A DNA stretch of 64,000 bases, taken from Mustelus asterias. Lineage: Eukaryota. The position numbers and the translations under genes were made by a program. The stretch spans positions 121,830,001 through 121,894,000 of the forward strand of contig NC_135807.1 of NCBI RefSeq assembly GCF_964213995.1, given 5' to 3'. Shown one piece after another: positions 4,333-48,846 of the stretch (position 1 is its first letter; each line of letters begins with the position of its first letter). The notes under the pieces are model-generated. The model worked only from the letters and a program-made list of their open reading frames with translations, searched no databases and was not told the DNA's origin.

Positions 4333-4712
4333 GACCTTACCAAAAGCCTTCGGAAAATCCAAATGCACCACATCTGCTGGCTTCCCCTCATCTGACTATC
4401 AGGTTTCCCCCCCCCCCCCATCATAAATCCATATCCGGAATATACCACCCAGGCCCTCCCCTCTGCCTTATTCCTGTAACCCCACACATTTATCATGGCC
4501 AACCCACCTAACTTGCACATCTTTGGCCACTAAGATTCTGCCCAATAATTTCTAAGTGTTTTTTTTAAAAAAATTCATTCGTGGGACATGGGCATCGCTG
4601 GCTGGTCAGCATTTATTGTGTGGAGATGCCGGCGTTGGACTGGGGTAAACACAGCAAGAAGTTTAACAACACCAGGTTAAAGTCCAACAGGTTTATTTGG
4701 TAGCAAAAGCCA

Positions 4713-4749
4713 CACAAGCTTTCGGAGCTCTAAGCCCCTTCTTCAGGCG
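4713..4749 (-). ncRNA. Minimal type I hammerhead ribozyme motif (Penelope pLTR)
   Basis: CGC-CUGAAGA-A-GGGGCU UAG AGCUCC-GAAA-GC-UU-GUG on the minus strand. Confidence 0.75.
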
Positions 4750-5630
4750 AGTGGGAATTCTGTTCACAAACAGAGCTTATAAAGACACAGACTCAATTTA
4801 CATGAATAATGGTTGGAATGCGAATACTTACAACTAATCAAGTCTTTAAGAAACGAAACAATGTGAGTGGAGAGAGCATCAAGACAGGCTAAAAAGATGT
4901 GTATTGTCTCCAGACAAGACAGCCAGCAAAACTCTGCAGGTCCACGCAACTGTGGGAGTTACAAATAGTGTGACATGAACCCAATATCCCGGTTGAGGCC
5001 GTCCTCGTGTGTGCAGAACTTGACTATCAGTTTCTGCTCAGCGACTCTGCGCTGTGTCGCGAAGGCCGCCTTGGAGAACGCTTACCCGAATATCAGAGGC
5101 CGAATGCCCGTGACCGCTGAAGTGCTCCCCAACAGGAAGAGAACAGTCTTGCCTGGTGATTGTCGAGCGGTGTTCATTCACCTGCGACAACGGATGAATG
5201 AACACCGCTCGACAATCACCAGGCAAGACTGTTCTCTTCCTGTTGGGGAACACTTCAGCGGTCACGGGCATTCGGCCTCTGATATTCAGGTAAGCGTTCT
5301 CCAAGGCGGCCTTCGCGACACACGACAGCGCAGAGTCGCTGAGCAGAAACTGATAGCCAAGTTCTGCACACACGAGGACGGCCTCAACCGGGATATTGGG
5401 TTCATGTCACACTATTTGTAACTCCCACAGTTGCGTGGACCTGCAGAGTTTCACTGGCTGTCTTGTCTGGAGACAATACACATCTTTTTAGCCTGTCTTG
5501 ATGCTCTCTCCACTCACATTGTTTCGTTTCTTAAAGACTTGATTAGTTGCAAGTATTCGCATTCCAACCATTATTCATGTAAATTGAGTCTGTGTCTTTA
5601 TAAGCTCTGTTTGTGAACAGAATTCCCACT

Positions 5631-5667
5631 CACCTGAAGAAGGGGCTTAGAGCTCCGAAAGCTTGTG
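5631..5667 (+). ncRNA. Minimal type I hammerhead ribozyme motif (Penelope pLTR)
   Basis: CAC-CUGAAGA-A-GGGGCU UAG AGCUCC-GAAA-GC-UU-GUG. Core intact, with palindromic AAGCUU at stem III. Confidence 0.8.
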
Positions 5668-8089
5668 TGGCTTTTGCTACCAAATAAACCTGTTGGACTT
5701 TAACCTGGTGTTGTTAAACTTCTTACAGCATTTATTGCCCATCCCTAGTTGCCTCAAGAAGGTGGTGGTGAGCTGCTTCTTGAGTCGCTGCAGTCCACGT
5801 GCTGTGGGTTGACCCACAATGCCACAAGGGAAGGAGCTAGACAGCTCTCCCAATTTTGGCACTCGCCCCCAGATGTTAGTAAGGAGGGCTTTGCAAGGTC
5901 AACAGGGCCTGTTTCACTTCTTTGTTGAGACTTGGTAGCGATTGATTCAACTGAGTGACTCACTTGGCTATTTCAGAGGGCAGTTGAGAGCCAACCACAA
6001 TGCTGTGGCTCTCGAGTCACATGTAGGCCAGACCACGTAAGGAGGGCAGACTTCCTTCCCTAAAAGGACATTAGTGAGTTTCATAATAGATTTAATCATT
6101 TTCTCTACTGGTGTCAGACCAATAGGTTTGTAGTAACATTTTTTTCCCCCCATCCCTCTTTTCTTATTAGTGGGGTTACATTCCAAAATCCAAAGAACAT
6201 TGGAAAATGACCATGAACGAATCTACTATCTCCACAGCCTCTTTCAATCCTCTGCGACGTTGATTGTTCGGTCCAGAGGATTTTTCACGTTTCAGTCCCT
6301 TTCCCCAGTACTACCAAGGTTCACTAGGTTGATCTCTGGATTGAGGAGTTTGGCCTGAAGAGATGCTAAGTAAAATGGGCCTACAATCACCTGAAGTTTA
6401 GAAGAATGAGGGGGTTCTTATTGAAATATATAAAAATCCTGAGGGATTGACAGTTTAGATCCAGAGGTGTTAGTCACTGGTGGAGAGAATTTCTCAGAAG
6501 ATAAATCTTTGGAGTTCCAGCAGACTGTGGATACTCAGTTCTCAAGGTGGAATTTTTCCTTCTACCTTCTGGATTCCACACTCAGTATTCTATCCTTCTG
6601 CAAATGCAATCAAATATATTTTCCCAGCAACTAACAAATGGCAACTTTAATTTCTTTCATATCAGATTGTTACAGCTCTGCCGAAAACTGCCTGTTTTGG
6701 TTCTCAGGCCCCTTACCATTTTGAATTTCATTTGTCACCTACCGATCCAATTTCCTGGAAGGATTATCCTTCCAAATCCAATCACGCACATTAAGTTGCA
6801 TTGCTTCAGTTTTTAAAACCAGAGCTTTTACTCAACTCATCTAAAAGGAAGAAGAGATGATCTTATTGAAACATGCAAAAGATCTGAGGAGACTTGATAG
6901 GGTGGTTACCAGAAGATGTTTCCTCTTGTGGTGGAGAGTTTATGGGATCTCCCATTTATGACAGAAATTAAGAGAATTTTATTTACCAGAGGGTCATTAG
7001 TCTGGAATTCTGATCCCTAAATAGTAGTGGATGCTAGGTCAAGAATTTGGTCAAGGCTGCATGAAACGTGCACGCAGGTGTGGGGGGGGGGGGGGGGGGG
7101 GAGGAGAGAGAGAGAAAGGGGACCATACCAAATTCCACTTTGAGAACTGAGCATCCACAGTTTGCCCATGATCTTATCGAATGGCAAAGCAAGCCTAAAA
7201 AGGGCTACTCCCATGTCCCCTATCTGCTGATGTGGCACTGTCAAATTTTGCTTGATGGTACTCATGTGAGGCAGCTTGAAATGCTGAACTAAATAAAAAG
7301 GCCCTATATGTATGCAAATTGCAGTTCCAATCTCCCTTTATCCACATGCTTCATTCATCTATCCATTCTAAACATTGACAGTTTTTGCCTCAGACATTAA
7401 CTCTGGAAACAAATTCCGCAGCGTCACAACCAAACAGAAAATCCTAAAAGGGGTTCAACAAGCAAATGAAAATACATTTAAGTATGGTACTTTGCACTGC
7501 CACACTCCAACTATAAAACATTCAGAACAAAGGAAACAAAAATTGCTCACTTTAAATGAAGACCCAGAAAAGAGAATTCAGAGTCAAGCTAAGAATCAAA
7601 ATCCAATGAACGTTATTTCAGTCTTCACTAGTTGCCCCCTGCCCCACTTCTTTGCAAAGAGGTAGAATATCATGCTCCAAATGCAGGTTTTCACCAAGGT
7701 GACTGTTTTCCCCCCCTCACAACCAAGGTGTACACACAGAAGTTAGAAACCACTGCACAGTACACACACACACTTTAGAAACCACTTTAGCCCCTTTCCA
7801 GTAAAGCCATTAGTCAATAACTCAGTCCTTAAAAAAAGTAGTTCACCCCCGAGAAACGTGTTTCCTCTCCTTTCCCCGCGATTGCTCAAGTCCAAACCAC
7901 CACTCGAACTGGTGGCGGGAAGTCACTTTCCACCTCGCATTCAAAATGGATTCAAAAGGAGGCAAGAGAGAAATTTAGGAAGTAAGAGCTGGGGAGACGT
8001 GCAGCTGGGCCATGAGAGAGAAGGCGGTGGAAGGGAGGACAGGGGGAATTAGATTAACCACCATTTCAGCCACAGGAACACAGGGTACT

Positions 8090-8420
8090 TACACAAACTG
8101 GCGCAGGAGGAACGGTCAGCAGCACTTTAAATATAGACCCTCCTGTCAAACGGAGCCCACATTACTCTCTGTTCCGCTGGCTATCTGTGTGTCCCCACCA
8201 TTGATCCGTCTCTCTGCTCCCTGGCTGATTGAGCGCTTCTCTCTCGCGCTCCGCCGTTCGAATTTCGTATCCAAAATCCTGATTTGTCGGTCGGAGCAGC
8301 CAATCAGCGGCCGCCTTACTGTCCCTGGGCCGACCGGAAGTTCCGCTGCCAACTCGCGCGAGCCTCGAGCCTTTCCTTCCAGTCGTTTCTAGGGAAGGGG
8401 CGAGCGAGGGAGCGCAGCGG
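8090..8420 (+). promoter_or_regulatory. POLR2K: POLR2K CpG-island promoter and non-coding exon 1 (ends 8420)
   Basis: CpG-rich; CCAAT near 8300; ETS site CCGGAAGT at 8334-8341; donor CGG|GTAAGT at 8420/8421. Confidence 0.8.
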
Positions 8421-8536
8421 GTAAGTGGGCGATTACCCTCCCCCACCCCAAACAAAAATATGCTTTATTCATAAATCTGAGAGAACGTTATAGAATGGCC
8501 ATCGCACAAAAAAAAGCAATAATATTTCGGTCCTTT

Positions 8537-8837
8537 ATTGGGTGCCACACTGCTGCTTCACAGCGCCAGGGGGGACCCGAGTTCGATTCCGGCCTCGGGT
8601 CACTGTCTGTGCGGAGTCTGCACGTTCTCCCCGTGTCTGCGTGGGTTTCCTTCGGGTGCTCGGCCCCCCCCCCCCCCCGCGCCACACTCTGAAAGACGTG
8701 CTGGTTAGGTGCATTGGCCGTGCTAAATTCTCCCTCAGTGTACCCGAACAGGTGCCAAGTGTGGGCGCTAGGGGATTTTCTCAGTGACTTCATTGCAGTG
8801 TTAATGTAAGCCTACTTGCGACACTAATAAATAAACT
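8537..8837 (+). mobile_element. V-SINE with Rex1-like tail
   Basis: B-box GAGTTCGATTCC, V-domain, and tail ending tacttgcgacactaataaat. Confidence 0.8.
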
Positions 8838-9819
8838 TCATTACGTGCATCAAATAACATTTTATCAGGTGGCTTCAATACAGTCAAAGAAACGTTTTGG
8901 ATGTTTTACAATGGTCCTACAAATGTTGCAAAGTTATTTTAAAGGTTGTCTACATAGAAAAAGTTGCACTCCAAGGTCCTTTAGTACAACTGAGATGCAT
9001 GTAATATTTACTATGCATTCAGTGAGTCATTCGACCTGAGGAGGTTCTCCACCCTTTGGTTCTCTTGTGGCTGAAAGGTCTTAGGAATAAATAATGCCAA
9101 CTTAAACCTGATATAAACCATCAGTAGCCAGTGGTAAATCAATTAATAAACTCCTCAAGTCCAGTGTGACTCTTCTTGGGAAGAAGATGAGTAGTCATTT
9201 TAGAGTTGAAATTAATCCTTGTTTTTTTTCTCTCTGCACAAGGTGCTGCCAGATCTGACTTTTTCCATCACTTTCTGTTTTTATTTTAGATTTCTCCAGC
9301 ATTTGCAGTATTTTGCTTTTAATGAGTTCCCCTGGTTTTGAAACTGTTGTTAATGATTAGGCTGAGGGTCGAGGGGTTATGATCCATCTGTACACTTGTG
9401 TTGGTCACACTTGTTGGGTGAGAGTGGATGGGACTAAGGTTTTCTTCAGCTGAGGTGGAGGGAAAAAGCTCCTGTGTATCAGGAGCCTTGTCACCTGCAA
9501 TGAAATTGCTTACATTTAGCATTTGAGGTACAGCTGTTCTTGTAAAGTATGGAGCACATTGATCAATGGGTGGGGGTAGCTGTTGCTGTTTTGGACTCTT
9601 GCCTTCTTGAAAAAAGCGCCCATTGGGCACCGCAGGGGTTGGGGTGCGTTATTGACCCTGACAATCACATTTTAATTTGATGTTTTTAAGTTTCCTTTGT
9701 ACTTTGATTTCTGTTCGGGCTGTTCCCCCTCCTTTTGGGGAGCTGCCCCTTTTTACTTTGTCCTGACTTAATCTGAGTTTGTTTATTTGGTTTGACCTAA
9801 AAAGAGGGCCACAAACGGG

Positions 9820-11100
9820 CTGCCAATAAAATACAGAAAATTCATGGCACAGAAGGAGGCGACTTTGTCCATGGCGCCTGGCTGGCAAAGAGCTATCCAG
9901 TCTGATCTCACTTTCTGGCACTTTGGCCACAGCCTTGTAGCTCATCATACCCCAGTGCATCAATTTTTTTTAGGCTTTATGCCTTTCCCACCCTTTCAGG
10001 CTGAATCCTTTCAGTTTCCTTAGTGAAAGAAAATGCTCCTCATCTAATTCTCCCAGTTACTCAAAATAAATTCCAGTGATTATTAATCCCTCTGCTTCCT
10101 ATGAATCCTATCGAAGCCCCTCATGATTTTTACATCTCAATTGTATCTCCTACCCGTACTAATCTTTGTTCTTGGCTAAAATTGATCATTCTTGTCAACA
10201 TCCTTGGAAATCTCCACTGTACTCTTTCTAATGGTTTCCTGTAATGTGGTATCTAGAACTGTACAAAGTACTCTAACTGTAGCCAAACATGTCCTATACA
10301 ACCAACACAATCTCCTTGCTCTTGCTTTATTTTATTTGCTCAGGCAGAGAATGTATCTTGTATCCCTTTTTAATCATCTTGTCTACCTGTCCTCCTACCT
10401 TCAGAGATCTGTGGTTATGCAAACCAAGGTGGCCTCTGTTGCTGTACACTTCTCACTATCCTACTATCTATAATATATTTTCTTGTCTTATTTGCCAGCT
10501 TTCTGCCTACTGACCAGCCCATTTTCCTAGTGTCCAACTTTCTTCAGCACTATGAACCACAAGATCATTTTTTTCATGATCTGCAAATTGTATGTTTGAG
10601 TCCAAATCATTGATATAAACCATGAAAAGATGGGACTAATACTGAGCCCTGAGGCGACTTCACTCAAAACAGCTTTCAATTTATAAAACCACCTGTTGAC
10701 TAACCCAATTGGCTGCTGACCACATTTGGATCCAGTTTGTGATTTTCGTTTGGATCCCATTAGTCCTTAGTCTTTTAACAGTTTGTCATGTGGAGCCATG
10801 TCAAAAGTTTTGTTGAAATCCATGTAAACGGCATCAGATATGTTGCCCTCATCGACCATTCTTGTTATTTCAAAATAACTGATTTGTTATTTCAGGGCGA
10901 CCTACTGTTAGTTCCATTCCAAGTGTTCTTGATTAATTTGTCTTTCTAAATGATGATTTATATGATGATTCTATTTTTTCCAATAATTTGTTAGGCTTAA
11001 ATAAGTGTGAGAACTTGGAACATTCCTCCTTCCACTTTTATACAATGCAGCAATGTTAGCAGTCCTTAGGTTCCATGCTTGCCAGCAGAGAGGTTTGGAA
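9820..11100 (-). mobile_element. Highly degenerate CR1 LINE fragment
   Basis: Decayed similarity to the intact CR1 at 39413-42326. Confidence 0.55.
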
Positions 11101-11199
11101 AATGACAATCATTGATATTTGCCAAACTGCTGTTTCTTCCCTTGCTACTCTTAGCAGTCTGGGATACATTTCAATCCGGGCAAGACCTGGCAAAAGCAA

Positions 11200-11845
11200 A
11201 GTGACATGAATGTATATGTGCATAAATCATTTAAAGTGACAAGATAGGTTGAAAGTGTGGTTGATAAAGCATCTGAGGTTTTATTAATAGGAGCATAGAA
11301 CACAAAGGCAAAGAAGTTAAATAAACTTGTATAGTAAACGAATCGGAGTATTATGTTTTGGACACCATACTGAAAGATATGAATGCATTAGAGAGAATGC
11401 AGAAAATATTGATGAAAGTGGTTCCAGGGATGAGGAACATCAATTATGTAGGTAGAGAAGTTAGGACTGTCTGCCTTGGAGAAGAGAAGATTGAGTGGAG
11501 GTTTGATAGAGGTGTTCCAAATTATGAAGGTTTTTGGACAGGGTAGATTGAGAAAAGCTGTTCCCCTTGGTGGAAGGACAGAGAGCAAGAGGACACAGAT
11601 TTAAGGTAATTAGCAAAATAAACAATGACAACTTTTTCACACAGCGGGTAGTTGGGATCTGGAATGCCCTGCCTGAGAGTGTGGTGGAGGCAGGTTCAAT
11701 CAAGGCATTAAAAAGAGAATTGGAATATTACCTGAAAAGAAAGAATGTGCAGTGCTGCGGGGAGTGACACTGGGTAAATTTCTTCTTCAGAGAGACAGCA
11801 GGATGAATGGCCTCCAATTCTGTAAATGCATCTATACTATTTGAT
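11200..11845 (+). mobile_element. CR1 LINE 3' fragment
   Basis: RGHRFKV...FFTQRVVGIWNALP C-terminal motif and 3' UTR. Confidence 0.8.
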
Positions 11846-11885
11846 TCAAACGCTCCTTCTGATGAGTTCCACATTCTCACCATCC

Positions 11886-12550
11886 ATTTGATTTGATTTG
11901 ATTTATTATTGTCACATGTATTAGTGTACAGTGAAAAATATTGTTTCCTGCGTGCTATACAGACAAAGCATACCATTCACAGAGAAGGAAAGGAGAGAGT
12001 GCAGAATGTAGTGTTTTAGTTATAGTTAGGGTGTAGGGAAAGATAAACTTAATGCAGGGTAGGTCCATTCAAAAGTCTGATGGCAGCATGGAAGAAGCTG
12101 TTCTTGAGTCCATTGGTGCGTGACCTCAGATTTTTATATCTTTTTCCCGACGAAAGAAGGTGGAAGAGAGAATGTTCAGGGTGCATAGGGTCCTTAATTA
12201 TGGTAGCTACTTTGCCGAGGCAGCGGGAAGTGGAGACAGAGCCAATGAATGGGAGGCTGGTTTGTGTGATCGATTGGGCTACATTCACAACCTTTTGTAG
12301 TTTCTTGTGGGCTGAGGCAGAGCAGGAGTCATACCAAGCTGTGATACAACCAGAAAGAATGCTTTCTATGGTGCATCTGTAAACGTTGGTGAGAGTCGTA
12401 GCAGACATGCCAAATTTCCTTAATCTTCTGAGAAAGTAGAGGCGTTGATGGGCTTTCTTAACTATAGGGTCAGCATGGGGGGATCAGGACATGTTGTTGG
12501 TGATCTGGACACCTACAAAATTGAAGCTCTCGACCATTTCTACTTCGTCA
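11886..12550 (-). mobile_element. Rex1/Babar LINE 3' fragment
   Basis: YRCTIESILSGCITAWY...KNSFFHAAIRLLN; (ATCAA)n tail. Confidence 0.85.
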
Positions 12551-12684
12551 TTGAGTAAAGAAGACTATTCTGAATTCGTTATTGGATTTCTTGTTGGCTA
12601 CCTTGTGTTGATGGCCTCTCGTTAGAGGAAATGTTCTTTTTGTATCCACTCTATCAAAACCTTTCAACCTGTGCCACCTTTTTG

Positions 12685-13002
12685 GGGCAGCACGGTGGCA
12701 CAGTGGTTAGCACTGTTGCCTCACAGCATCAGGAACCCGGATTGAATTCCGGCCTCAGGTGACTGTCTGTGTGGAGTTTGCATGTTCTCGCTTTGTCTGC
12801 GTGGTTTCCTCCGGGTTTTCAGATTTCCTCCAACAGTCCAAAGATGTGCGGGTTAGGTTGGCCGTGCTAAATTGCCCCATAGTGTCAGGGGGATAAGCAG
12901 GATAAATGCATTGGTTTGCGGGGATGGGGCTTGGGTGGAATTGTGGCCGGTGCAGACTCGATGGGCCAAATGGCCTCCTTCTGCATTGTAGGGATTCTAT
13001 GA
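12685..13002 (+). mobile_element. V-SINE (HE1-like), full length, CR1-type tail
   Basis: GGGCAGCACGGTGGCACAGTGGTTAGCA head, V-domain, and tail ...ctgcattgtagggattctatga. Confidence 0.85.
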
Positions 13003-14194
13003 AACTTCTAAATCCTTTTACTGGGTCACCTCTCAGCTTTTTTCAAGAGAAAAAGGGACCTAGCCTGTCAGCCCATCCCTGATGTGCATTTCTGGTATCA
13101 TCTTTGTAAGTCTTTTCTGCCCCCTCTCCAGAGCCTCTACATCCTTTTTATAATATGCCAACCAGAACTGCACGCAGTACTCTGTTGTCTAACCAAGACT
13201 CAATACAGATTTGGCATACCTTCTTTAATTTTCAGTTCTATCCCTCTAGAAATAAAGCGTGGTGCTCAGTTTATGGCCTTGCAAATCCGTGGCCCAACTT
13301 GACCTATTGATTGATCTATTTGTACTCCAAGATATCTTTGTTCCTGTACCCCATTTAGACGTGCTCCTTCCAAGTGAGAAGTGACCTTTTTATTCTTCCT
13401 ACAAAAATGCACTACCACACATTCAATTGTATTGAATTTCATTTGCCAATTATTTGCCCATCCTGCAAGATTTTCTTAATATCTTTCCCTGTAATTATGT
13501 TTTGGATTTCAAAGTCCAAATTGATAATTGAATTGTGAACAGCAGTTATCCCAGTGCAGATACTTTGTGGAACACCACTTCCTATGTTCTGCCACTCTGA
13601 GAAAATACCTTTTATTATTACTCTGCTTTCTGTCTTGGAGCCAGCTAGCAATCCATTCTCCCTCTTCCCTCTTGACTCCACATTCTCTGACCTTGTTCAT
13701 CAGTGCATGGTGGGGCACACTGCTGCCACCCTGTACTGGTGGTGGAGGGAGTGAATATTTAAGATGATGGATATGGTGCCAATCAGGCTGCATTGTCCTA
13801 AATGGTGTTGATTCTTGAGTGATGGAGCTGCACTCATGCAGACGTGTGGATATCTCCAGTTATCCATGGCGAGCACAAATAACGCCTAATGAAGTTTGTC
13901 AATAGAAAGTAACACATTTAAGCTTTTGTCATGAAACTGTCATGGGAAATTAAATTGGATGTTAGGTTTACTAACCATAGTTTGTATGTTTGAATTTAAT
14001 GTGTTTACTGATAAACTTCAAATTTGACATTATTACAACTGGTTAGTTCAAAATATGACATGTAACTGTCTGTATATTTAAAAAAACCTGAGGAGAAACT
14101 GTCTAAACTAATGAAGCACAAAACCTCTGGACTATATAATTATTCACATTTGGTTAATTGTCTTTCAGTTTAACCACCTGAGCACCTGATAGAA

Positions 14195-14255
14195 ATGGAT
14201 GCGCAGAAGGACTTGCAGCCTCCGAAACAACAACCCATGGTCTATATTTGTGGAG
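14195..14255 (+). CDS. POLR2K: RNA polymerase I/II/III subunit RPABC4 (RPB12), coding exon 1 (exon starts 14169)
   Basis: [20 protein letters not shown]; acceptor tctttcag|, donor GAG|GTAATA. Confidence 0.97.
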
Positions 14256-14919
14256 GTAATAATCACAACCTGGACTACAATTTTGAATAACAAAACAGAT
14301 TGTTGTGTTACTTCTTGGATCTTAAGTCAATTCTATGATCCAATTAAAGTGGTGTTTTCTTCGGTTACTTCATTCACCACTGGAGCTGTTACGAAATACA
14401 GGAGTTTTAAGGGTTGAAGGATCACCATATATGCCATGTGAAACTCCCTAGCTTCAAAGTAATGCCCATTTAATATTTGTATTTCATCCTTAGTACTGCC
14501 TTGCTTCTTTTTATCTTCGTAAGCTATCCGATTACAAAAGTGAGTCCTTGCATTTCTCCAAGACATCCAATTTGCTTTTGTCTGCATGGTGCAGAAAATG
14601 CTGGTGTGTGCCTCAGGTTTTTGTACTGCAGTATTCAACACTATTTAGGTGCCTCTCAAGGATCCGTCTCATTGTCAGACATGAATGGAAGCATGCAAAG
14701 CTCTGCTAGTAAAATCTGTCAGATTGTTTTGTGTGTGTTGTTCCAGTTGCAGGTTTGTGTCCTTGCCTAACTGTTTCCCTATTACTTAACACAGGCTGTC
14801 CTCTCTGAATCTTCCAAGTTAGTTCAAATTAAAATAAACTATGCATTCATCTGGAGTGGCAGGATACAGGCTTGCACCTCTGAATTGACAGACTTAACTA
14901 ATAGCACCGGACAGATAAT

Positions 14920-15186
14920 AAAAACAGAAAATGCTGGAAAATCTCAGCAGATCTGACAGCATTTGTGGGGAGAGAATAGAGCCAACGTTTCGAGTCGAGA
15001 TGACCCTTTGTCAGAGCTAAGAGCAAAGAGAGGTCACCTCTTAGCTCTGACAAAGGATCATCTAGCCTCGAAACATTGGCTCTATTCTCTCCCCACAGAT
15101 GCTGTCAGACTTGCTGAGATTTTCCAGCATTTTCTGTTTTTGTTTCAGATTCCAGCATCCACAGTATTTTGCTTTTATCTTAATGT
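14920..15186. mobile_element. Small palindromic Penelope-like insertion (second family)
   Basis: About 14920-15023 is inverted relative to about 15038-15141, with an extra ~45-nt tail on the right arm. TSD ACAGATAAT at 14911-14919 and 15187-15195. Hammerhead-like CUGAcaA..GAAAC in both arms. Confidence 0.85.
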
Positions 15187-16220
15187 ACAGATAATGTTGT
15201 GTTTCACTTTTTGTAGGGGAGTGGTGTTAGAGGAAGAAACGATGAGTTATCAGGTTGGTCTGATGTATCTTTTAGTGACTAGCTTAAGAACAGCCTACAC
15301 AGTAACTGGACACCAGGTGGTTATAGTTGAGTGCCTGTACAGGAGGAAGAGAAAAGAGTTGCATGTGTATTGTGGTTCCTGCAATAGGTAAGATTGGATG
15401 GAGGGGGAAAAAGCCTCCTGCCCGAAGCTTCAGTGGAAATGTCCTGTAGTATAAATTGACATGGCATTTGTTTTGTAGCATTGTTGCTAATGACTGCCCT
15501 GATTTTAATGATGGAATGGGACTGCTGCAATTGAAAGCATTGAGATTCAACTAAACAACACCTATTTCTGATTGGTTTGCACAACCTTCTCCATCCATTG
15601 GGGTAGGCCTGGCGTTAGGAACTGTGGAATGTTTCCAGTGCTTTGGAAGAATACGTAATAGGTGCCTAGGATATTAAAACCTACTTTACAGCATAACATG
15701 GGATAGCGAGCACAGTACATAATTGTTTTCCAAACATTTGATTTTGACATCAAGGGGAAAAAATTGGAAACGGTTTGAATAATTTTAAATTTTGTAGTTC
15801 TTTTGGTGTTACTTTGGAGGAAGTTTAATGCAATCTGAGTTATTGGTCCAGCCACAACACCCATAATATATCTAATTATAAATATGTAAAATTGGTTTTC
15901 CTGTAGCTAAAATGTATTTTCCTTAGTAAAATTTGTGACCCTAGATGGACAAAAGTATCAGGAAAAATATCCTGTACCATGTTGTAGATGTTGCACATGA
16001 TCTAAATTACAAGAGCTTACCTTGAATATGCCAACTTCAATACTAGTGTCCATTTTGTGAGGTAAATGAATTGTTATCTTCTCATTTGATGCTTTATTTG
16101 GTACGTTGTTTACAATCAGAACTTGCTTTTTAAAGGCTATATTTGCTGTTAGATCAAAATACCAATTTCTAATGGAGCTTCATTGCTATGTATTGGAGGT
16201 GCTAAATTGTCTTGCTTAAT

Positions 16221-16405
16221 TAAAGGTAAAGTCACCATATTCCCAGAAGGTGCTCTGGTGGTGATTTTAACCTGAGAATCACCACACCTCAGGGGAGGGG
16301 AAAAGTTGAGAATGCGGGCCTTTATGAATAACCGAAGCTGGTACGAGAATTGAACCTGCACTGTTGGCATTGCTGTATATCACAAATCGGCAGTCTTAAT
16401 TGGCA
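16221..16405 (-). mobile_element. tRNA-derived SINE with ctttaccttt tail
   Basis: B-box GGTTCAATTC on the minus strand; short-repeat tail. Confidence 0.5.
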
Positions 16406-16647
16406 CCAATACCAGTGAGTAGATTTGTCAGTATAAAGTGGTAACAGGACTTTTTGCCAAATGTCTGACTCGTTCCTCCAGCTGGCATAACATTCATTCA
16501 TCAAGCTAATCTGTTTCTGCATGTAGACAGGGAAGTACATGAGCAACATTTAACATTCACGCACCCTACTTAAAAAATAAAATGAAGAAGGTACCAATAT
16601 AATTGAGGTTGAATTTGAATATTGAGCCATTTGTTTACTTATTACAG

Positions 16648-16740
16648 AATGTCATACTGAAAATGAAATTAAAGCCAGAGATCCTATCCGATGCCGAGAA
16701 TGTGGTTACAGAATAATGTACAAGAAGAGAACAAAAAGAT
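16648..16740 (+). CDS. POLR2K: POLR2K coding exon 2 (Zn ribbon)
   Basis: [31 protein letters not shown]; 93 nt, in frame with the neighbouring exons. Confidence 0.98.
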
Positions 16741-17079
16741 GTATCCTTAAACATTGTAGCATATAACTATTTAATGTCTTATTGTTTTGCTTCTTTTGGA
16801 AAATATATGGCGTGCATTTGGAGATCAAGGTGATCCCATCTATCATTGGAATCTTTTCCCTTGTGCAGATAGTTTTATTAAAGATACCAGAGTTTAGTCT
16901 CCTTTGCTTGCTGAATTTAGAGTGGACTAATGCTATTGAAACAGTTGCCTGTCTTTTACTTTTATTTGGATAAATTGTGTTGCCCACAGAACAGCCTAAA
17001 TTTCTGTACTAATGTGAAAGAAGTGGGACACCAAGGTTGAAGTAAAAGAATTGGGTTGTCAGCAAAGGGGAAGAGACTG

Positions 17080-17400
17080 AAGATTTTTTCTCAACTTGGC
17101 ACAGTGATAACACTTCACCTTTGCTTTATAAGGTCTTTCAAACCTGTTCCAGAAATTAAGGCAAATAATCCAGGATGATACTTTATTGCTGGACTGGGGC
17201 AATACTGCCTTATCTGGGATGACAATCTTCGGATGAGACATTGAAACTTTAATGTCCACTCGAGAAATTTTGTGGCATTATTCGAAAATGAGAAGAGCAG
17301 TTCTCCAATGTCCTGGCCAACGTTTAACCAACACCACTAAAATAGATTGTCGGGTTGTTTATCTCATTGTATGGGTTCTTGTGTGCACATAGGGGACCAA
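17080..17400 (+). mobile_element. Degenerate Deu-domain SINE
   Basis: Similar to 58328-59438 (gtcctggccaa..., tctcattgt...tgtgtgca). Confidence 0.55.
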
Positions 17401-17739
17401 AACAGGAAGTTGCTACAAATTAGGGGTGACAGCGATGTTACAGGAGGAGAAACAAAATGGTAGGAGTGGGACATGAAGGAGTAGATGTTGATAAATGGGT
17501 ATCATGGATATAGAGTGTGAAATAAAGGTGATGGTGGAGAAAGGTCAGGCAGAAGAGTAGTGAAGTGTGGTTGATTGGCAACAATCTGCAATCTGTGGGT
17601 CTGAAACCAAATGGAAGCAAGGTAATTATAAAACTAATTGGAGACAAATAATTGGAGACAAAAAGGAAATTACAAGGTTTTGGTCAGAGATTTAGAAGTA
17701 GTCTTTCTCAACAGTACAAGACAAGGGTGATGGGAATAG

Positions 17740-19330
17740 ATCTGATTTGATTTATTATTGTCATATGTATTGGTATAGTGAAAAATATTGTTTCTTGTGC
17801 ACCATACAAAGCATACCATTCATAGAGTACATAGGGGAGAAAGAAAGGAGAGGGTACAGAATATAGTGTTACAGTCATAGCTAGGGTGTAGAGAAAGATC
17901 AACTTAATATAAGCCCGGTCCATTCAAAAGTCTGTTTGCAGCAGGGAAGAAGCTGTTCTGGAGTTGGTTGGTATGTGATGTCAGATTTATGCATCTTTTT
18001 CTCGGCAGAAGAAAATGGAAGAGAGTATGTCTGGGGTGCGTGGGGTCCTTGATTATGCTGGCTGCTTTTCCAAGGCAGCGGGAAGTGTAGACGGAGACAA
18101 TGGATGCGAGGCTGGTTTGCGTGATGGATTGGTCTATGTTCACAACCCTTTGTAGTTTCTTGGAGCTATATCAAGCTGTGATACCTCCAGAAAGGATGCT
18201 TTCTATGGTGCATCTGTAAAAAGTTGAGAGAGTCATAGCGGACATGCTGAATTTCCTCAGCCTCCTGAGAAAGTAGAGGGTCTGGTAGGCTTTCTTAACT
18301 ATAGCATTGGCGTAGAGGGACCAGGAAAGGTTGTTGGTGATCTGGACATCTAGAAACTCGAAGTTCTTGACCATTTCCACTTCATCCCCATTGATGTAGA
18401 CAGGGGCATGTCCTCCACTATGCTTCCTGAAGTTGATGACTATCTCCTTTGTTTTACTGACATTGAGGGAGAGATTATTGTCGCCGCACCATTTCACCAG
18501 ATTTTCTATCTTTCCTGTATTCCGTCTCATCATTGTTTGAGATCCGATCCACTACAGTAGTGTCATCAGCAAGCTTGAACATCAGGTTGGAGCGGAACTT
18601 GGCCACACATTCATAAGTGTCTAAGGAGTATAGTAAGGGGCAGAGGACACAGCCTTGTGGGGCACAGGTGTTGAGGATAATAGTGGAGGAGGTGTTGTTG
18701 CCTAGCCTTACATTGCGGTCTATGGGTTAGGAAGTCTAGGATCCAGTCACAGAGGAAGAAGCCGAGCCCCAGGCCACAGAGTTTGGAGATGAGTTTTGTC
18801 GGAATAATGGTGTTGGAGGCTGAGCTATAGTCACTGAATAGGAATCTGACATAAGTGACTTTGTTATCCAGGTGTTCCGGGGTTGAGTGTAGGACCAGGA
18901 GATGGTATCTGCTGTGGACCTGTTGCAGCAATAATAGGCAAACTGTAGTGGATCCAGGCAATCTGGGAGGCTGGAGTTGATCTGTGCCATGGCTAACCTT
19001 TTGAAGCATTTCATAATGATGGATGTCAGAGCCACCGGGTAATAGTCATTAAGACACGTTGCCTGGCTTTTCTTTGATCCAGGGATGATGGTCGTCGTCT
19101 TGAAGCAGGTAGGAACCTCAGATTAGTGTAAGGAGAGGTTAAAGAAGTCTGTAAATACCCCCACCAACTGGTCCACACAGGATCTGAGTGCTTGTCCAGG
19201 TATCCCAACCGGACCAGTCGCTTTCCGAGGGTTGACTTTCAAGAAGGCTGATCTGATGTCTGCGATGGTGACCTCGGATACCGGTTCGGCCCAGGTTTTC
19301 AGGGCATAAAGCGTCTTCTCGCTGACCACC
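17740..19330 (-). mobile_element. Rex1/Babar LINE, 5'-truncated and frameshifted
   Basis: [47 protein letters not shown]; (ATCAA)n tail. Confidence 0.9.
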
Positions 19331-19744
19331 TCCTCAAAAAGAGGCAAGAAGAGGTGAAGAAATGATCAAAGATACTTCTTGTCAAGCAGCTAAAGTAATA
19401 GAGTTACTCTATTTTAGAGAAGAAATATTGGCACTGTTCATCTTTGCTGCCCTCTCGCTCACATCTTTTCTATTGCTTGCTGATCAGAATGTTAATGGGA
19501 GCTACATTGAGGAAAGTGATTTGTGGAAGAAAATTTAAAATACAATATCTTAAACTAGTTTGGTGAGCTTGAAAAACTCTTGATGGAAAGTTATTTAAAA
19601 TGCCAAACATGCATACACTTTTTTTAGCTGTCAGAATAGTCAGTGCGTTATCTCTACGTTAAAACAAATTGTTTTTTCCAATTTAACTATAATTTGACTG
19701 GGAGCTTGGTACAGCAGATGGTGTTAACTGGGATACTAAATAGA

Positions 19745-20506
19745 AAGAAGTCTCACAACACCAGGTTAAAGATCAACAGGTTTATTTGGTAGCACAAGCC
19801 ACTGGCTTTCAGAGCGCTGCTCCTTCATCAGGTGAGTGGGAGTTCTGTTCACAAACAGGACACATAAAGACACAAACTCAATTTACAAAATAATGGTTGG
19901 AATGCAAGTCTTTACAGGTAATCAAGTCTTAAAGGTACAGACAATGTGAATGGAGAGTGGGTTAAGCACAGGTTATTGTCTGCAACCAGGACAGTTAGTG
20001 AGATTTTGCAAACCCAGGCAAGTCGTGGGGGTTACAGATAGTGTGACATGAACCCAAGATCCCGACACACGACAACGCAGAATCGCTGAGCAGAAACTGA
20101 TAGCCAAGTTCCACACACATGAGGACGGCCTCAACCAGGATCTTGGGTTCATGTCACACTATCTGTAACCCCCACGACCTGCCTGGGCTTGCAAAATCTC
20201 ACTAACTGTACTGGTTGGAGACAATACACACCTCTTTAACCTGTCCTTAACCCTCTCTCCACTCAGATTGTCTGTACCTTTAAGACTTGATTACCTGTAA
20301 AGACTCGCATTCCAACCAATATTTTGTCAATTGAGTTTGTGTCTTTATATGCCCTACTTGTGAACAGAACTCCCACTCACCTGAGGAAGGAGCAGTACTC
20401 TGAAAGCTTGAGGCTTGTGCTACCAAATAAACCTGTTAGACTTTAACCTGGTGTTGTGAGACGTCATACTGTGCTTACCCCAGTCCAACACCAGCATCTC
20501 CACATC
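19745..20506. mobile_element. Palindromic Penelope-like insertion
   Basis: 19745 to about 20062 is inverted relative to about 20138-20467; tail on the right arm. TSD ATACT(A/G)AATAGA at 19733-19744 and 20507-20518. Hammerhead motifs at 19800-19834 (-) and 20378-20412 (+). Confidence 0.9.
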
Positions 20507-20619
20507 ATACTGAATAGATCCAGGATTATTCATGATGTTCTGTAAAAGTTTAATACTTAGATTCCAAGTAGCTGTAGTTTCACAATTTACATTTCTTTCC
20601 TTAACCTGAACCTTTACAG

Positions 20620-25201: not shown

Positions 25202-25796
25202 ATGTTGAGATACTGGGGTGGGCACAGTAATAAGTCTCACAACACCAGGTTAAAGTCCAACAGATTTATTTGGAATCATGAGCTTTCGGAGCACTGCTCC
25301 TTCCTCAGGTGTGTGGAGAGTTGAGTTTGCAAACATGGCACATATAGACAGACGCAATTGCAAGATAATGGTTGGAACGTGAGTCTGCAGGTACAGACAA
25401 TGCGAGTGACGAGAGGGATAATCACAGATTAAAGAGGTGTGAATTATCTCAAGCCAGGACAGTTAGTAGGATTTTGCAAGCCTAGGCAAAATGGTGGAGG
25501 TTACATGTAGTATGACATGAACCCAAGATCCCGGTTGAGGCAGTCCTCTTGCAAGCGGAAATTGGCTATCAGTTTCTGCTCAGCGATTCTGCGTTGTGTG
25601 TCTTGAAGGCCATCTAGGAGAACACTTACCCAAAGATAGGAGGCTGAATGCCCTTGACTGCTGAAGTGTTCCCTGACAGAAAGGGAACACTCCTGCCTGG
25701 TGATTGTCACGTGGTGTCAGCTCATCCGATGTAGCGTCTGCATGTACCACATCTCAGGACATTCTTTCCTGCAGCGTATGAGGTAGATGCAACCTA
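25202..25796 (-). mobile_element. 5'-truncated Penelope with hammerhead motif (25277-25311)
   Basis: Matches the 3' end of 45903-48846. TSD TTATGT(G/A)GGTTG at 25190-25201 and 25797-25808. Confidence 0.88.
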
Positions 25797-33305: not shown

Positions 33306-33499
33306 CAAAGTAACAATAAATTATTCGTGTCGTTTGAGATGATTATACTTGAGTTTCCGGTGTACTATATTGAATTTATGTGAATTGGCACTCATGATGA
33401 GCAAATATATTTCACAATGTCGTATCTACTGTTATTTTATGTCCTTATATAATTATTTATTAGGACTTCTAGAAGCATAGTTGCCACAGGGTAAGTTTT

Positions 33500-33772
33500 T
33501 TTTATTAGTCACAAGTAAGGCACATTAACACTGCAATGAAGTTACCATGAAATTCCCCTAGTCGCCACACTCTGGTGCCTGTTTGGGTTAATGCACCTAA
33601 CCAACATGTCTTTCAGATTGTGGGAGGAAACCGGAGCACCCGGAGGAAACCCACGCAGACACGGGGAGAACGTGCAGACTCCATACAGACAGTGACCCAA
33701 ACCGGGAATCGAACCTGGATCCCTGGCCCTGTGAGTCAGCAGTGCTAACCACTGTGTCACCGTGCCGCCCCA
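33500..33772 (-). mobile_element. V-SINE with Rex1-like tail
   Basis: tRNA head, V-domain, and tail tacttgtgactaataaa. Confidence 0.85.
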
Positions 33773-34350
33773 TGGACAACTGAATAAAATATCTGTGAAT
33801 CTAATATAGTAAATCTAATCTACGGCCCTTTGCAGCTTTGACATTCTTTCTGAAGTCAGATCCCCAAATCTGTGCACCGTATTCTGATTGGCTGCCTATA
33901 CTTCTTATGATAAGATTAACAAAATCTGATTGAAAAATCTGATTAAAATTGTCATGTATGCTGAACTTTGAAAGTTGGTTATGTTTTGAAATGTACCTTT
34001 TACTCAAAGTATAGTAGAGGATTCTGGAAATACCTCTGCCTGGAGATATGCCCATATGACCCAGGTGTCATTGGGAGAGAAACTCAAACAAAAACCCAAT
34101 GAGGTGTGGTGTGCCGCTTTTAACACTTTTTCACAGTATCCCACAGCAAAAGGACAGCTGCAGAGACAAAGAAGCTTCAGCTATGGGGAAGCAGATGTAA
34201 TGTTTTGTGCTACTGACCAAGAGGTTTCTGTTCAAAAGAAAGGGAACAGAACAAATAGATCTCTTGAAGTTCTAAGGAACCAGGTCACCTAAGTGTGCCT
34301 TGCTGGTGATCATTATATCCACAAAGATTTTACTTGATTAGAATGATTAC

Positions 34351-34641
34351 GGGCGGCACAGTGGTTAGCACCACTGCCTCACAGAGCCAGGGACCCGGAT
34401 TCAATTCCAGCCTTGGGTGACTGTTTGTGTGGAGTCTGCACATTCTCCCCGTGCCTGCGCGGGTTTCCTCCGGGTGCTCAGGTTTCCTCCCACAGTCCGA
34501 AAGATATGCTGCGTAGCTGTATTGGCCATGCTAAATTCTCCCTCTGTGTACTCGAACAGGTGCCAGATTGTGATGACTAGGGGATTTTCACAGTAACTTC
34601 ATTGCAGTCTTAATGTAAGCCTACTTGTGACACTAATAAAT
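34351..34641 (+). mobile_element. V-SINE with Rex1-like tail
   Basis: GGGCGGCACAGTGGTTAGCA head, V-domain, and tail tacttgtgacactaataaat. Confidence 0.85.
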
Positions 34642-36279
34642 ACTTTATAAGCTTTAAAAACTGATTGTTGAAGGACACTGGAAAATGTAATTGAAGCAAA
34701 AGTCTAAAAGTCTAAATTGCTGTATTTCAGTAAATCAGTAATTGCGTGTCTTTAGGATCGCCAATTCTGGTCGGACATATTCAAGGAGATGTTATCACAT
34801 AACCACCTACATTTGAATGTAACTCCCCCAGATTCCTGCCATTGGTCACCCAAGATATGCATCATCGCAGAGCCCTGCCTTCCCTAGGCTTTTCAATGTG
34901 TCCCTGGTTTTGACTTTTGAAATTTTAATCACACTGGTCCAGATTGTCAGCTGATATTTTGTGCTTATATCCCTGGAGTGGGACTAGAATCCACAATGTT
35001 CTGGCTGAGAGTTGGGAGTGCTACCTATGATCCATAGCTGATAGATTAACAATCTGAATTCTAAAAACAAAAAACATCCACCATTGTTTGGTGTGCTGAA
35101 GGAACTAACTTGATGAATCAAATGGTCAATCTGGAAATGCTTGGCTGTTCTGGTGGAATTTCTGGAGAGAGAAGGAGAATTAATGCTTTCATCATTGACC
35201 CGAAACATTGGCTGGGATTTTCAATTCAGGGTCAAGAAACCAACCACTGGTTCAGTGGTTGCTCCTAACTCTGCATGGTGTGTTACATAAAGTCCAGTTG
35301 CTAGTTAATCTCAGGGAGTGGACTCACTGTCCAATCTGTTCCTTCATCCTTTTGGCCATCCAGCACTCTGATTGGCAGCCACAACGGCTGAGGTGGAAGC
35401 TATTGATCTGCACGTAGAAAGAGGGAGGAGTGAAGATGAGTTTATTTTTATTTTTCAAAAAACCTTGGCCATGATCTTGGATGGGCAACCCCTCTACGGG
35501 TCTGCCAATGGCTGAAGTTATGTCTGGGAGGTGACGGAGATGCACCGGTTGTTTGTGTGTCTGATTGGAATTTCCAGTTTTAATTACCAAAAATGACTGC
35601 CCGATGCTGCCTGCAGTCAGCCAATCTGACCCTGAGCCGCCCTTGTTGAAGATGGCTTGGGTTTGGGGTCGTGGCAGGCACCAGGCGCAGTGGCCAGTGG
35701 TGTCAAGTTGTGGATTTGCCTACGTTTAAACTCAGCCCCAACCTTTTTAAGAGTCCCAACCATTAACTTTGTTTCTCTCTCCACAGATGCGGCCAGACCT
35801 GTTGAGTATTTCCATCTTTTTCTGTTTTTATTTCAACTTTCCAGAATCTGCAGTATTTTGCTTTTGCATAACTGTAAAACTCTGATATCTTTAGTTCATT
35901 TTACATTTTTTTTGTGGTTTGTTTCCTACTATTAATAAAATTTCTAAAATACCCTGGACATAACTCCTCTTGCTGCAATATGTTTATGAGTTTCCCAGTA
36001 GCATTATAATTAAAGTTTCCCTGGAGTCATGGTTTTTGGATATGTTTGTGAGTGTGATACTATTTGTGTCTGTTATGAATTTTGTTTCTGTCTTGTACTC
36101 TTAAACTATAATAAGGTAGAATAGTGTGGTTCATGTCATTGGAGCATCAACACACTACGCAACAAAATGATGTGTTTACAGCATGATTCTCCAAATAATG
36201 AGTTCAATACCTGTCTTGTAATCATGAAGAAACAAGATGCTTCCCTGAGGAAAGGAAGCAAGATTTCTGAAGGCGGAAA

Positions 36280-45902: not shown

Positions 45903-48846
45903 CATATCGCATATCGCGCATATCAACACAGACATCAAGTTTCTACAAAGATGCAAGAAAGCAGACAAGATACCGAAAGGACTACAGATCACGAACCCAC
46001 TCAGGTCAACCTATAACACAGACTACGCTGAGAGACTGTGCCGTCGCACCTCTCTCACACTCCTCAACCACCTCATACACCAGCTCTACAGCAAACACCG
46101 CAGCCTGGAAACCAAGATAGAATCCACATTCTCAACTTGCATTCAGGACGCAGACCAGCTGCGAAACTCTGCCAAGCAGACGAGACAAAGGAACTACACC
46201 ATCTACATGCACACCAAGAACAGGAAACTTGAGAAACTCGGCATCACCACCAGCAGCAACCAAGCCTCCCCTGATACCACAGTAGAAAACAGTACCACTA
46301 CAGGGAAGTCCATTGTCAACTTGTCGGACTACACACTTCAACCAGATGAAATCGAAGTTCTCAGCCGAGGGCTCCATTTTTGCCCCACCACCAAAATAGA
46401 CCCCATCAGTCTCGCAGCAGACACAGAGGAATTCATCAGACGAATGAGGCTGTGGGAGTTCTTCCACAAACCCCAAAAGGCCAACAGCGAACACAATGAG
46501 ACAGCCAATGAACCGGAACAGCCGACAGAGAGATCCGCAGTGCATCCGAAGAGGAAAGAGTCGAATTGGACTTCTCCGGAAGGCTGCTGCCCTCGACTTG
46601 ACATGTATGCCCAAGCCATCAGGAGGTGCGTCAACACCAAATTCATCAGCCACACTCACAAGACAGCCCCGAACATCACCCAAGCACAATGCAACACTAT
46701 CCGCGCTCTCAAGACCAACCGCAACATTGTCATCAAACCAGCAGACAAAGGAGGAGCCATCGTCATACTGAACAGAACGGATTACTGCAAAGAAGTGTAC
46801 CGACAACTGAACAACGAGGAACACTACAGACAGTTACCCGCAGATCCGACCAAAGAACACACCCGTCAACTCAACACTCTGATCAAGACCTTTGATCCGG
46901 ACCTTCAGAACACCCTCCGTGCTCCCATCCCACGTACTCCCCGCGTTGGAGATCTCTACTGCCTCCCGAAGATACACAAGGCAAACACATCCGGCCGTCC
47001 CATCGTATCGGGCAATGGGACTCTGTGCGAGAACCTCTCCGGTTATGTCGAGGGCATCCTGAAACTCATTGTACAAAGAAACCCCAGCTTTTGTCGCGAC
47101 ACTACGGACTTCCTACAGAAACTCAGCACACATGGAGCAGTTGAACCAGGAGCACTCCTCGTCACAATGGATGTCTCGGCACTCTACACCAGCATCCCCC
47201 ACGACGATGGCATTGCTGCAACTGCCTCAGTACTCAACGCCGACAACTGCCAGTCTCCAAATGCAATTTTACAACTCATCCGCTTCATCCTGGACCACAA
47301 TGTCTTCACCTTCAACAACCAGTTCTTCATCCAGACACACGGAACAGCCATGAGGACAAAATTCGCACCTCAATATGCCAACATCTTCATGCACAGGTTC
47401 GAACAAGACTTCACCACACAGGACCTCCAACTGATGCTATACACTAGATACATTGATGACATTTTCTTCCTTTGGACTCATGGTGAACAATCACCGAAAC
47501 AACTATATGATGACATCAACAAGTTCCATCCCACCATCAGACTCACCATGGACTACTCTCTGGAATTGGTTGCATTCTTGGACACACGCATCTCCATTAA
47601 GGACGGTCACCTCAGCACCTCACTGTACTGCAAGCCCACAGATAACCTCACGATGCTCCACTTCTCCAGCTTCCACCCTAAACACGTTAAAGAAGCCATC
47701 CCCTACGGACAAGCCCTCCATATACACAGGATCTGCTCAGATGAGGAGGATCACAACAGACACCTCCAGACGCTGAAAGATGCCCTCATAAGAACAGGAT
47801 ATGGCGCTCGACTCATCAATCGACAGTTCCGACGCGCCACAGCGAAAAACCGCACCGACCTCCTCAGAAGACAAACTCGGAACACGGTGGACAGAGTACT
47901 CTTCGTCGTCAGTACTTCTCCAGAGCGGAGAAGCTACGACATCTCCTCCGGAGCCTTCAACATGTCATTGATGAAGACGAACATCTCGCCAAGGCCATCC
48001 CCACACCCCCACTTCTTGCCTTCAAACAGCCGCACAACCTCAAACAGACCATTGTCCGCAGCAAACTACCCAGCCTTCAGGAGAACAGTAACCACGACAC
48101 CACACAACCCTGCCACAGCAACCTCTGCAAGATGTGCCGGATCATCGACATGGATGCCATCATCTCACGTGAGAATACCATCCACCAGGTACACGGTACA
48201 TACACTTGCAACTCGGCCAACGTTGTCTACCTGATAAGCTGCAGGAAAGGATGTCCGGAGGCATGGTACATTGGGGAAACCATGCAGACGCTATGACAAC
48301 GGATGAATGAACACCGCTCGACAATCACCAGGCAAGAGTGTTCTCCTCCTGTTGGGGAGCACTTCAGCAGTCACGGGCATTCAGCCTCTAATCTTTGGGT
48401 AAGTGTTCTCCAAGGCGGCCTTCACGACACACGACACCGCAGGGTCGCTGAGCAGAAACTGATAGCCAAGTTCCGCACACATGAGGACGGCCTCAACCGG
48501 GATCTTGTGTTCATGTCACACTATCTGTCACCCCCACAACTTGCCTGGACTTGCAAAATCTCACTAGCTGTCCTGTCTGGAGACAATACACATCTCTTTA
48601 ACCTGTGCTTAATGCTCTCTCCACTCACATTGTCTGTACCTTTAAGACTTGATTAGCTGTATTAGCATTGATTAGCATTCCAATCATTGTTCTGTAAATT
48701 GAGTTTGTGTCTCTGTATGCCCTGTTTGTGAGCACATCTCCCACTCCACCTGACGAAGGGGCAGCGCTCCGAAAGCTAGTGGCATTTGCTACCAAATAAA
48801 CCTGTTGGACTTTAACCTGGTGTTGTCAGACTTCTTACTGTGTTTA
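45903..48846 (+). mobile_element. Near full-length Penelope-like retrotransposon (RT + GIY-YIG), disabled
   Basis: IKPADKGG, YCLPKIHK, MDVSALYTSIP, RYIDDIF. Frameshift near 47910 and an in-frame TGA near 48294 in the GIY-YIG region (NVVYLISC..WYIGET). TSD CAACATTTGCA at 45892-45902 and 48847-48857. Confidence 0.95.
48746..48782 (+). ncRNA. Minimal type I hammerhead ribozyme motif, intact core
   Basis: CCAC-CUGACGA-A-GGGGC AGC GCUCC-GAAA-GC-UA^GUGG. Confidence 0.82.

Follow-up and report, generated by a model that had tools for sequence, protein, structure and literature searches.

The stretch analysed here, 64,000 nt of the Mustelus asterias genome (assembly GCF_964213995.1, contig NC_135807.1, positions 121,830,001 to 121,894,000; hereafter the window), carries three palindromic elements, and each is a single head-to-head Penelope-like insertion within one target duplication. 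They belong to two families, designated A (elements 1 and 3) and B (element 2). In all three, one arm carries a 3' tail and the other ends before it, as the original prediction had described. Across the genome, close pairs of arms nearly always show this one-of-each composition, and family A inserts at a palindromic target. It is very likely that both target ends prime reverse transcription, at two sites of the element RNA. From the sequence patterns, we consider it probable that a symmetric protein dimer holding one RNA presents these two start sites to two active sites, which would explain the paired arms.

Both arms of element 1 are enclosed by an exact 12-nt duplication (CAGCATTTATTG). This 12-mer is present once in 22/22 uninterrupted paralogues of the host repeat, and the exact empty-site pattern was matched by seven loci. 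The arms are 98.7% alike (518/525), with the tail-less arm reaching about 10 nt further in the 5' direction than its partner. Element 3 lies in a perfect CTG-N16-CAG target; its arms are 91.8% alike, and the tailed arm is about 75 nt longer at its 5' end. The arms of element 2 are 93.3% alike. Elements 1 and 3 are only 84.7% alike and thus represent independent events.

Two samples of the genome were used: an unselected one of 140 stretches of 10 kb (1.4 Mb), and a targeted one of 180 loci picked with tail-free queries; natural copies served as references. In the unselected sample, the 176 family A 3' ends comprised 86 tail-less, 84 tailed and 6 intermediate ends, and the 69 of family B comprised 36, 32 and 1, respectively, a two-class pattern far beyond chance. 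Extrapolated to the genome, these figures correspond to approximately 460,000 and 180,000 3' ends. About half of all arms, and about half of each end class, are single. A detectable duplication flanks 49 of 197 single arms, with both end classes represented. In family A, 19 tail-less single arms have their own duplication; such tail-less singles reach 1.4 kb (2.9 kb inside the window). Among 42 family A singles with a duplication, four conceal a stub of 11–20 nt, always of the opposite end class. At loci L083, L232 and L235, tail-to-tail neighbors are found, where a family A copy has inserted within or adjacent to the 3' end of a second one.

The first 257 sequences contained 145 close head-to-head pairs, 31 of which were dropped because they met a locus edge or lacked the 3' zone. 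The remaining 114 included 107 one-of-each pairs, none with two tails and seven that were tail-less on both sides; in the unselected sequence and window alone, 54 of 58 pairs were one-of-each. A later family B set (one pair dropped) added 12 one-of-each pairs, one two-tailed pair and no tail-less pair. Overall, 119 of 127 close pairs were one-of-each, one was two-tailed and seven were tail-less (p = 8e-27 against independent choice). In three of the tail-less pairs (L032, L137 and L241), bridging a later insertion restores the one-of-each composition, and another three (L041, L173 and L248) retain a partial tail when read by eye. All 16 wide-spaced pairs sharing a duplication were also one-of-each, a set that includes L032, L137 and L241 and in which a few duplications may be due to chance. 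The randomly placed arm ends that would speak against a common end rule were therefore not found; the ends fall into two narrow classes, paired one of each.

The most frequent duplication length is 12 nt in family A and 14–15 nt in family B. When the empty sites of family A are reconstructed, they prove palindromic, with CTG at -5 to -3 and CAG at +2 to +4 around the 12-mer, the interior of which has no motif. Of 31 sites with a 12-nt duplication, 19 carry CTG at -5 and 17 carry CAG at +2. The exact CTG-N16-CAG is present at 20 of 74 family A sites, compared to a background of 0.17%, and held-out sites were also far above background (p = 2e-17 for pairs, 3e-11 for singles). The half-sites are equally strong beside the tailed and the tail-less arm (19 and 17 of 31), so the asymmetry of the arms is not encoded in the target DNA. 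At L001 and L162, an identical 12-nt target in a shark short repeat was struck twice independently, with opposite arm polarity; at the sequence level, abundant repeats holding CTG-N16-CAG are evidently recurrent targets.

A duplication was validated in 89 pairs, with 12 nt as the most frequent length, and start positions were compared in 65 family A pairs with the duplication framed at 12 nt. Position 0 is the last T of ACTTCTT, and the family A AUG begins at +40. Tail-less arms start at a median of +3, with 57/65 between -2 and +7, and tailed arms at a median of +40, with 56/65 between +37 and +43, at the start codon of the open reading frame (ORF); the median distance between the two is 37 nt. 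A tail-less end fixed to within 1 nt had been proposed. This holds between elements 1 and 3 but not across the family, where the spread of about 10 nt rules it out. For two copies picked at random, the chance that their tail-less ends differ by no more than 1 nt is 26%, so with a true window 10 nt wide the match between elements 1 and 3 is a coincidence of that order. Primer ends match the continuation of the RNA over 1.65 and 1.20 nt (0.50 and 0.38 expected). An arm said to be cut at a fixed site appears instead to be primed over a 10-nt window, with primer pairing as at the tailed ends.

Six RNA folds at the start sites gave no significant structure (z from +1.0 to -1.5). In family A (window 4619–4700, minus strand, and L142:2045–2135), two overlapping candidate helices flank the tail-less start; they show one-sided changes only, and a pseudoknot or switch is possible there. 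Family B (window 15085–15186; L027 and L051) carries the motif CAG-Y-ATTTT...TTTT-YAGAT twice, about 37 nt apart, at both start sites, as if one candidate binding motif were repeated. The family A start sites share just a weak pyrimidine-AC likeness.

The two arms of a pair appear to derive from closely related templates. Of 30 unselected pairs in which neither arm was shorter than 45 nt, 15 had 5' ends within 10 nt of each other (permutation gave 3.1), as did 6 of 36 pairs longer than 120 nt (1.6 expected). Of 92 non-CpG private variants in 24 pairs, 34 were common to the partner arm and 11 to the nearest other copy, with the partner favored in 11 pairs to 0; the arms therefore do not come from different subfamilies. 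A greater closeness of the arms to each other than to other copies is borne out by these shared variants but not by overall rank. The partner was strictly the closest copy in just 9/47 cases and in the top three in 22/47 (23–233 candidates), as would be expected if a source also gave rise to younger copies. Strong gene conversion may have occurred but is not indicated, since mean divergence between arms (3.5%) is not below the mismatch rate between duplication copies (2.6%, a value biased low). A loss of the central loop with age, considered as the cause of the shared 5' ends, was unsupported in unselected pairs (p = 0.21); in a mixed set, 5'-concordant pairs were more divergent (p = 0.02), a comparison confounded by arm length and sampling. 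The centers of 107 pairs comprise 41 overlaps, sometimes at short palindromes such as AGCT, 12 blunt joints and 54 with extra bases. Fillers were templated within 70 nt in 15 of 29 cases (4.3 expected), and nearby-copied fillers are typical of polymerase-theta end-joining.

The simplest explanation for asymmetric products at a symmetric target is a symmetric dimer that holds one RNA. In family A, each of two endonuclease domains would cut a different strand, 2 nt 5' of a CAG, with 12 nt between the nicks; the geometry of the duplication suggests that this staggered double nick would leave two 12-nt 3' overhangs. Both overhangs would prime reverse transcription with 1–2 nt of pairing, one at a site immediately preceding the tail and the second at the ORF start codon, about 37 nt further downstream. 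The putative dimer, probably holding a single RNA, would feed the two start sites to its two active sites, an arrangement from which one arm of each class would necessarily result. Both enzymes would copy toward the RNA 5' end, with the trailing enzyme displacing the leading cDNA, and host end-joining would link the two cDNA ends head to head. Where one cDNA was tiny or lost, a single-arm copy of either class would result. The Penelope reverse transcriptase (RT) is not known to have RNase H, and its lack would permit one RNA to be copied twice.

In L1 twin priming, both target ends prime cDNA, and the product is an inversion within one duplication. L1 primes at the poly(A) for one segment and at a variable internal position for the other, and the two segments do not overlap. 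The description of these insertions as twin-priming-like is apt for the two inverted arms in one duplication; priming from both target ends is likely and is supported by the junction statistics. The description fails in other respects: there is no poly(A), both starts lie inside the element, in two windows separated by 37 nt, and the two arms span one and the same RNA segment, which would be copied twice.

Whether double priming is obligatory for every insertion, with a symmetric dimer, a palindromic CTG-N16-CAG cut and one RNA copied twice, is a reading we advance only tentatively, rating it a little below an even prospect. If true, insertions would all be born two-armed, single-arm copies would be pairs minus a lost arm, and double priming of this kind would be found in no other retroelement.

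Several observations weigh against the single-RNA dimer. At least half of the pairs have clearly unequal arms, and the tailed arm is the longer in a third, which needs full displacement of the leading cDNA. Start positions are uncorrelated between paired arms (rho 0.02); the two sites therefore do not act as a fixed-length ruler. Junction microhomology of the kind observed is also what end-joining would yield, and the shared variants could be explained by partial gene conversion or by a single source locus that gave two transcripts. In family B, the CTG/CAG motif is absent (0/15 sites) and the duplication is longer. Individual loci also depart from the rule: L209 is tail-less on both sides and has no duplication, and L267 (1455–1636), the one clear exception among close pairs, has two tails and, at best, a degenerate duplication. 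At L051, two tailed arms (314–487 and 1489–1662) lie 1 kb apart and are 97.7% alike; 29 nt of flanking DNA was also copied in inverted orientation, making this a DNA-level copying event that departs from the normal pattern. Lastly, the accessible text of an in vitro study of another Penelope-like element (PMC11167929) reports no strand difference in start site, although its reads did not cover both strands of individual molecules, and terms priming non-homologous.

If both ends instead primed on two separate RNAs, or on repeats of one tandem transcript, with an asymmetric dimer assigning the start sites, very unequal arms and the longer tailed arms (16/48) would be accounted for, and partial tandems do exist (L142). 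This alternative, which we rate as unlikely, does not predict the shared 5' ends (15/30 versus 3.1) and private variants unless both RNAs came from one locus, and it requires an additional source of asymmetry.

More doubtful still is the reading offered in PMC8557442, by which both arms begin tailed and the endonuclease trims one during resolution. Strict asymmetry would follow, the element's own CTG at +2 to +4 could direct a nick at +6, and cleavage by the D. virilis endonuclease depends on the tail (as cited in PMC11167929). Just 6 of 65 tail-less ends lie at +6, however, with a 10-nt spread as wide as that of the tailed ends; they also pair with the primer as much as tailed ends do, and both positions are reverse-transcription starts in vitro (PMC11167929).

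Fold-back, in which the tailed cDNA snaps back and its recopying stops short of the tail, or the related route of self-priming on an antisense template (proposed in PMC3846280), would yield identical arms and might suit the 41/107 overlapping centers, some at short palindromes. It demands that the tailed arm reach furthest 5'. In the 48 unequal family A pairs, the tail-less arm was longer in 32 and the tailed arm in 16 (p = 0.03), and the tail-less arm was also longer in 7 of 10 unequal family B pairs; element 1 shows the same order. Fold-back of a tailed cDNA is thereby excluded as the principal route, and the order of lengths agrees with one enzyme leading and another trailing. Long tail-less singles carrying their own duplications, and the extra bases at 54/107 centers, also count against it. 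Fold-back is highly improbable and is rejected as a general route, although rare cases such as L051 may fit. Two independent insertions or an assembly artefact, for which the sheer abundance of copies (176 + 69 ends per 1.4 Mb) might be argued, can be dismissed: one duplication encloses both arms in 89 pairs, the arms differ by only 1–9%, pairing would be expected to be random, and just three tail-to-tail neighbors were seen.

The architecture and the two start sites are largely known from other elements. Endonuclease-containing (EN+) Penelope-like insertions with an inverted pseudo-long terminal repeat (pLTR), a one-sided tail of 30–40 bp and a target duplication were described for Pen2a_Av (Arkhipova et al. 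2013, PMC3846280), and the same architecture is given in the Figure 2 legend of Craig et al. 2021 (PMC8557442). In the accessible parts of these two papers, head-to-head arms, a tail at one end, one duplication, partial tandems and a hammerhead motif are shared with the families described here, and hammerheads in Penelope-like elements are also treated in PMC4209133. Arkhipova et al. and Craig et al. describe the tail as 'optional' or 'often' one-sided and invoke endonuclease resolution or antisense self-priming to account for it, whereas here pairing is counted and tied to a symmetric target and shared templates. The Poseidon element of Anolis carolinensis, studied in vitro (Frangieh et al. 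2024, PMC11167929), has two internal start sites bounding the tail, cutting and extension of both target strands, an upstream hammerhead and a predicted dimer, all of which match what is seen or proposed for the present families. This agrees with the original prediction that both target ends prime at two RNA positions, which the end classes and their pairing also support. Poseidon belongs to another clade, its target is an AT-rich ATT rather than CTG-N16-CAG, and its start sites are inside the ORF, unlike those of family A, which lie before and at the AUG. The accessible text of PMC11167929 is silent on inverted arms, duplications and two-site pairing on one target.

No pairing count, palindromic Penelope target or shared-template evidence was found in the accessible literature, although Figure S2 of PMC11167929 (genomic ends) may bear on pairing. 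To this the present analysis adds numbers for the rule, a definition of the cut site and a single-RNA model that can be tested. The route to inverted, one-tailed Penelope insertions is called unresolved in the accessible text of PMC8557442, and the steps after priming are unvalidated in that of PMC11167929. Hundreds of thousands of genomic copies record the integration steps; the one-of-each rule, the cut site and the shared-template evidence give precise predictions open to an existing in vitro assay, in the retroelement class closest to telomerase, and they supply a simple annotation rule for these repeats.

Both families are EN+ Penelope-like elements of the Neptune/Nematis type, to judge from their encoded proteins. 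Long copies specify an RT (Pfam RVT_1, E-values 1.4e-9 and 9.6e-8) with a visible DKG motif, and the best fold match of a predicted model of the RT part (pLDDT 88) was TERT (E-value 5e-9). Downstream in the same ORF is a GIY-YIG domain (Pfam E-value 4.7e-4; 20.8 bits, slightly below the 22.6 cut-off), with VVY..C-x3-C..YIG and downstream histidines (CCHH motif) visible in the ORF, and an alignment profile matched the GIY-YIG domain of I-TevI (E-value 2e-4). No Penelope-like protein structure was present among the PDB sequence or fold search matches. A CX2-5CxxC linker, a Neptune and Nematis trait (accessible text of PMC8557442), lies between RT and endonuclease (PCHSNLCKTC in family A, PCNHRMCNTC in family B). 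In a partial tandem found in family A only (L142), the order is pLTR, tail, AUG (+40), ORF and pLTR, so the tail is the stretch immediately before the ORF.

A minimal hammerhead core was detected by pattern 60–95 nt upstream in five of six window arms; Rfam returned no hammerhead at the gathering threshold, and the motif is a pattern-based candidate. A footprint of hammerhead cleavage was sought and rejected: starts exactly at the predicted cut occurred in 3 of 94 short unselected arms, indistinguishable from background in the sample. The density of 5' ends falls roughly 4- to 7-fold just upstream of the hammerhead 5' edge (unselected loci L091–L190 and L221–L260), from 1.10 to 0.25 per nt at -99 in family A and from 0.83 to 0.12 at -104 in family B. 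The family B edge resembles a 3' splice site (pyrimidine tract and AG), and a similar site is reported for D. virilis in PMC4209133. The edge may be a transcript 5' end, a splice site or an RT stall.

Table 1. Coordinates of the Penelope-like insertions and their target duplications in the window.
Feature	Position	Strand	Remarks
Element 1, left duplication copy	4607-4618	+	12 nt, CAGCATTTATTG; CTG-GT directly before
Element 1, tailed arm, family A	4619-5180	minus	3' end at +37 of tail; minimal hammerhead motif 4716-4746
Element 1, tail-less arm, family A	5182-5725	+	ends ACTTCTTA at +1; hammerhead motif 5634-5664
Element 1, right duplication copy	5726-5737	+	followed by CC-CAT, a CAG half-site with one mismatch
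Element 2, left duplication copy	14911-14919	+	9 nt exact, 11 nt with one mismatch
Element 2, tail-less arm, family B	14920-15032	minus	hammerhead motif 14984-15014
Element 2, tailed arm, family B	15037 to ~15182	+	hammerhead motif 15047-15077
Element 2, right duplication copy	15187-15195	+	
Element 3, left duplication copy	19733-19744	+	12 nt; CTG-GG directly before
Element 3, tail-less arm, family A (older subfamily)	19745-20064	minus	ends ACTTCTT, position 0
Element 3, tailed arm, family A	20060-20506	+	ends at +39; hammerhead motif 20381-20409
Element 3, right duplication copy	20507-20518	+	11/12 nt match; followed by TC-CAG
Single-arm family A copy, old	25212-25787	minus	tail internally deleted; probable 12-nt duplication with one mismatch (by eye)
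Near-full-length tail-less family A copy	45903-48846	+	RT and GIY-YIG ORF without first ~20 codons

The ORF of the near-full-length copy has one frameshift near 47.9 kb and one stop within the endonuclease, and its flanks read as a perfect CTG-N16-CAG site once trimming of 2 nt at the 5' junction is allowed for. An apparent overlapping second ORF in this copy reflects a single frameshift, and stop counts in the other frames were as expected. A third palindrome family was sought among 23 other inverted repeats with small spacers, and the sole exact duplication belonged to family A. Another short repeat forms an inverted pair at 33493–34645 of the window; its two copies, 84% alike and separated by a 590-nt spacer, look like independent insertions of a short interspersed element (SINE).

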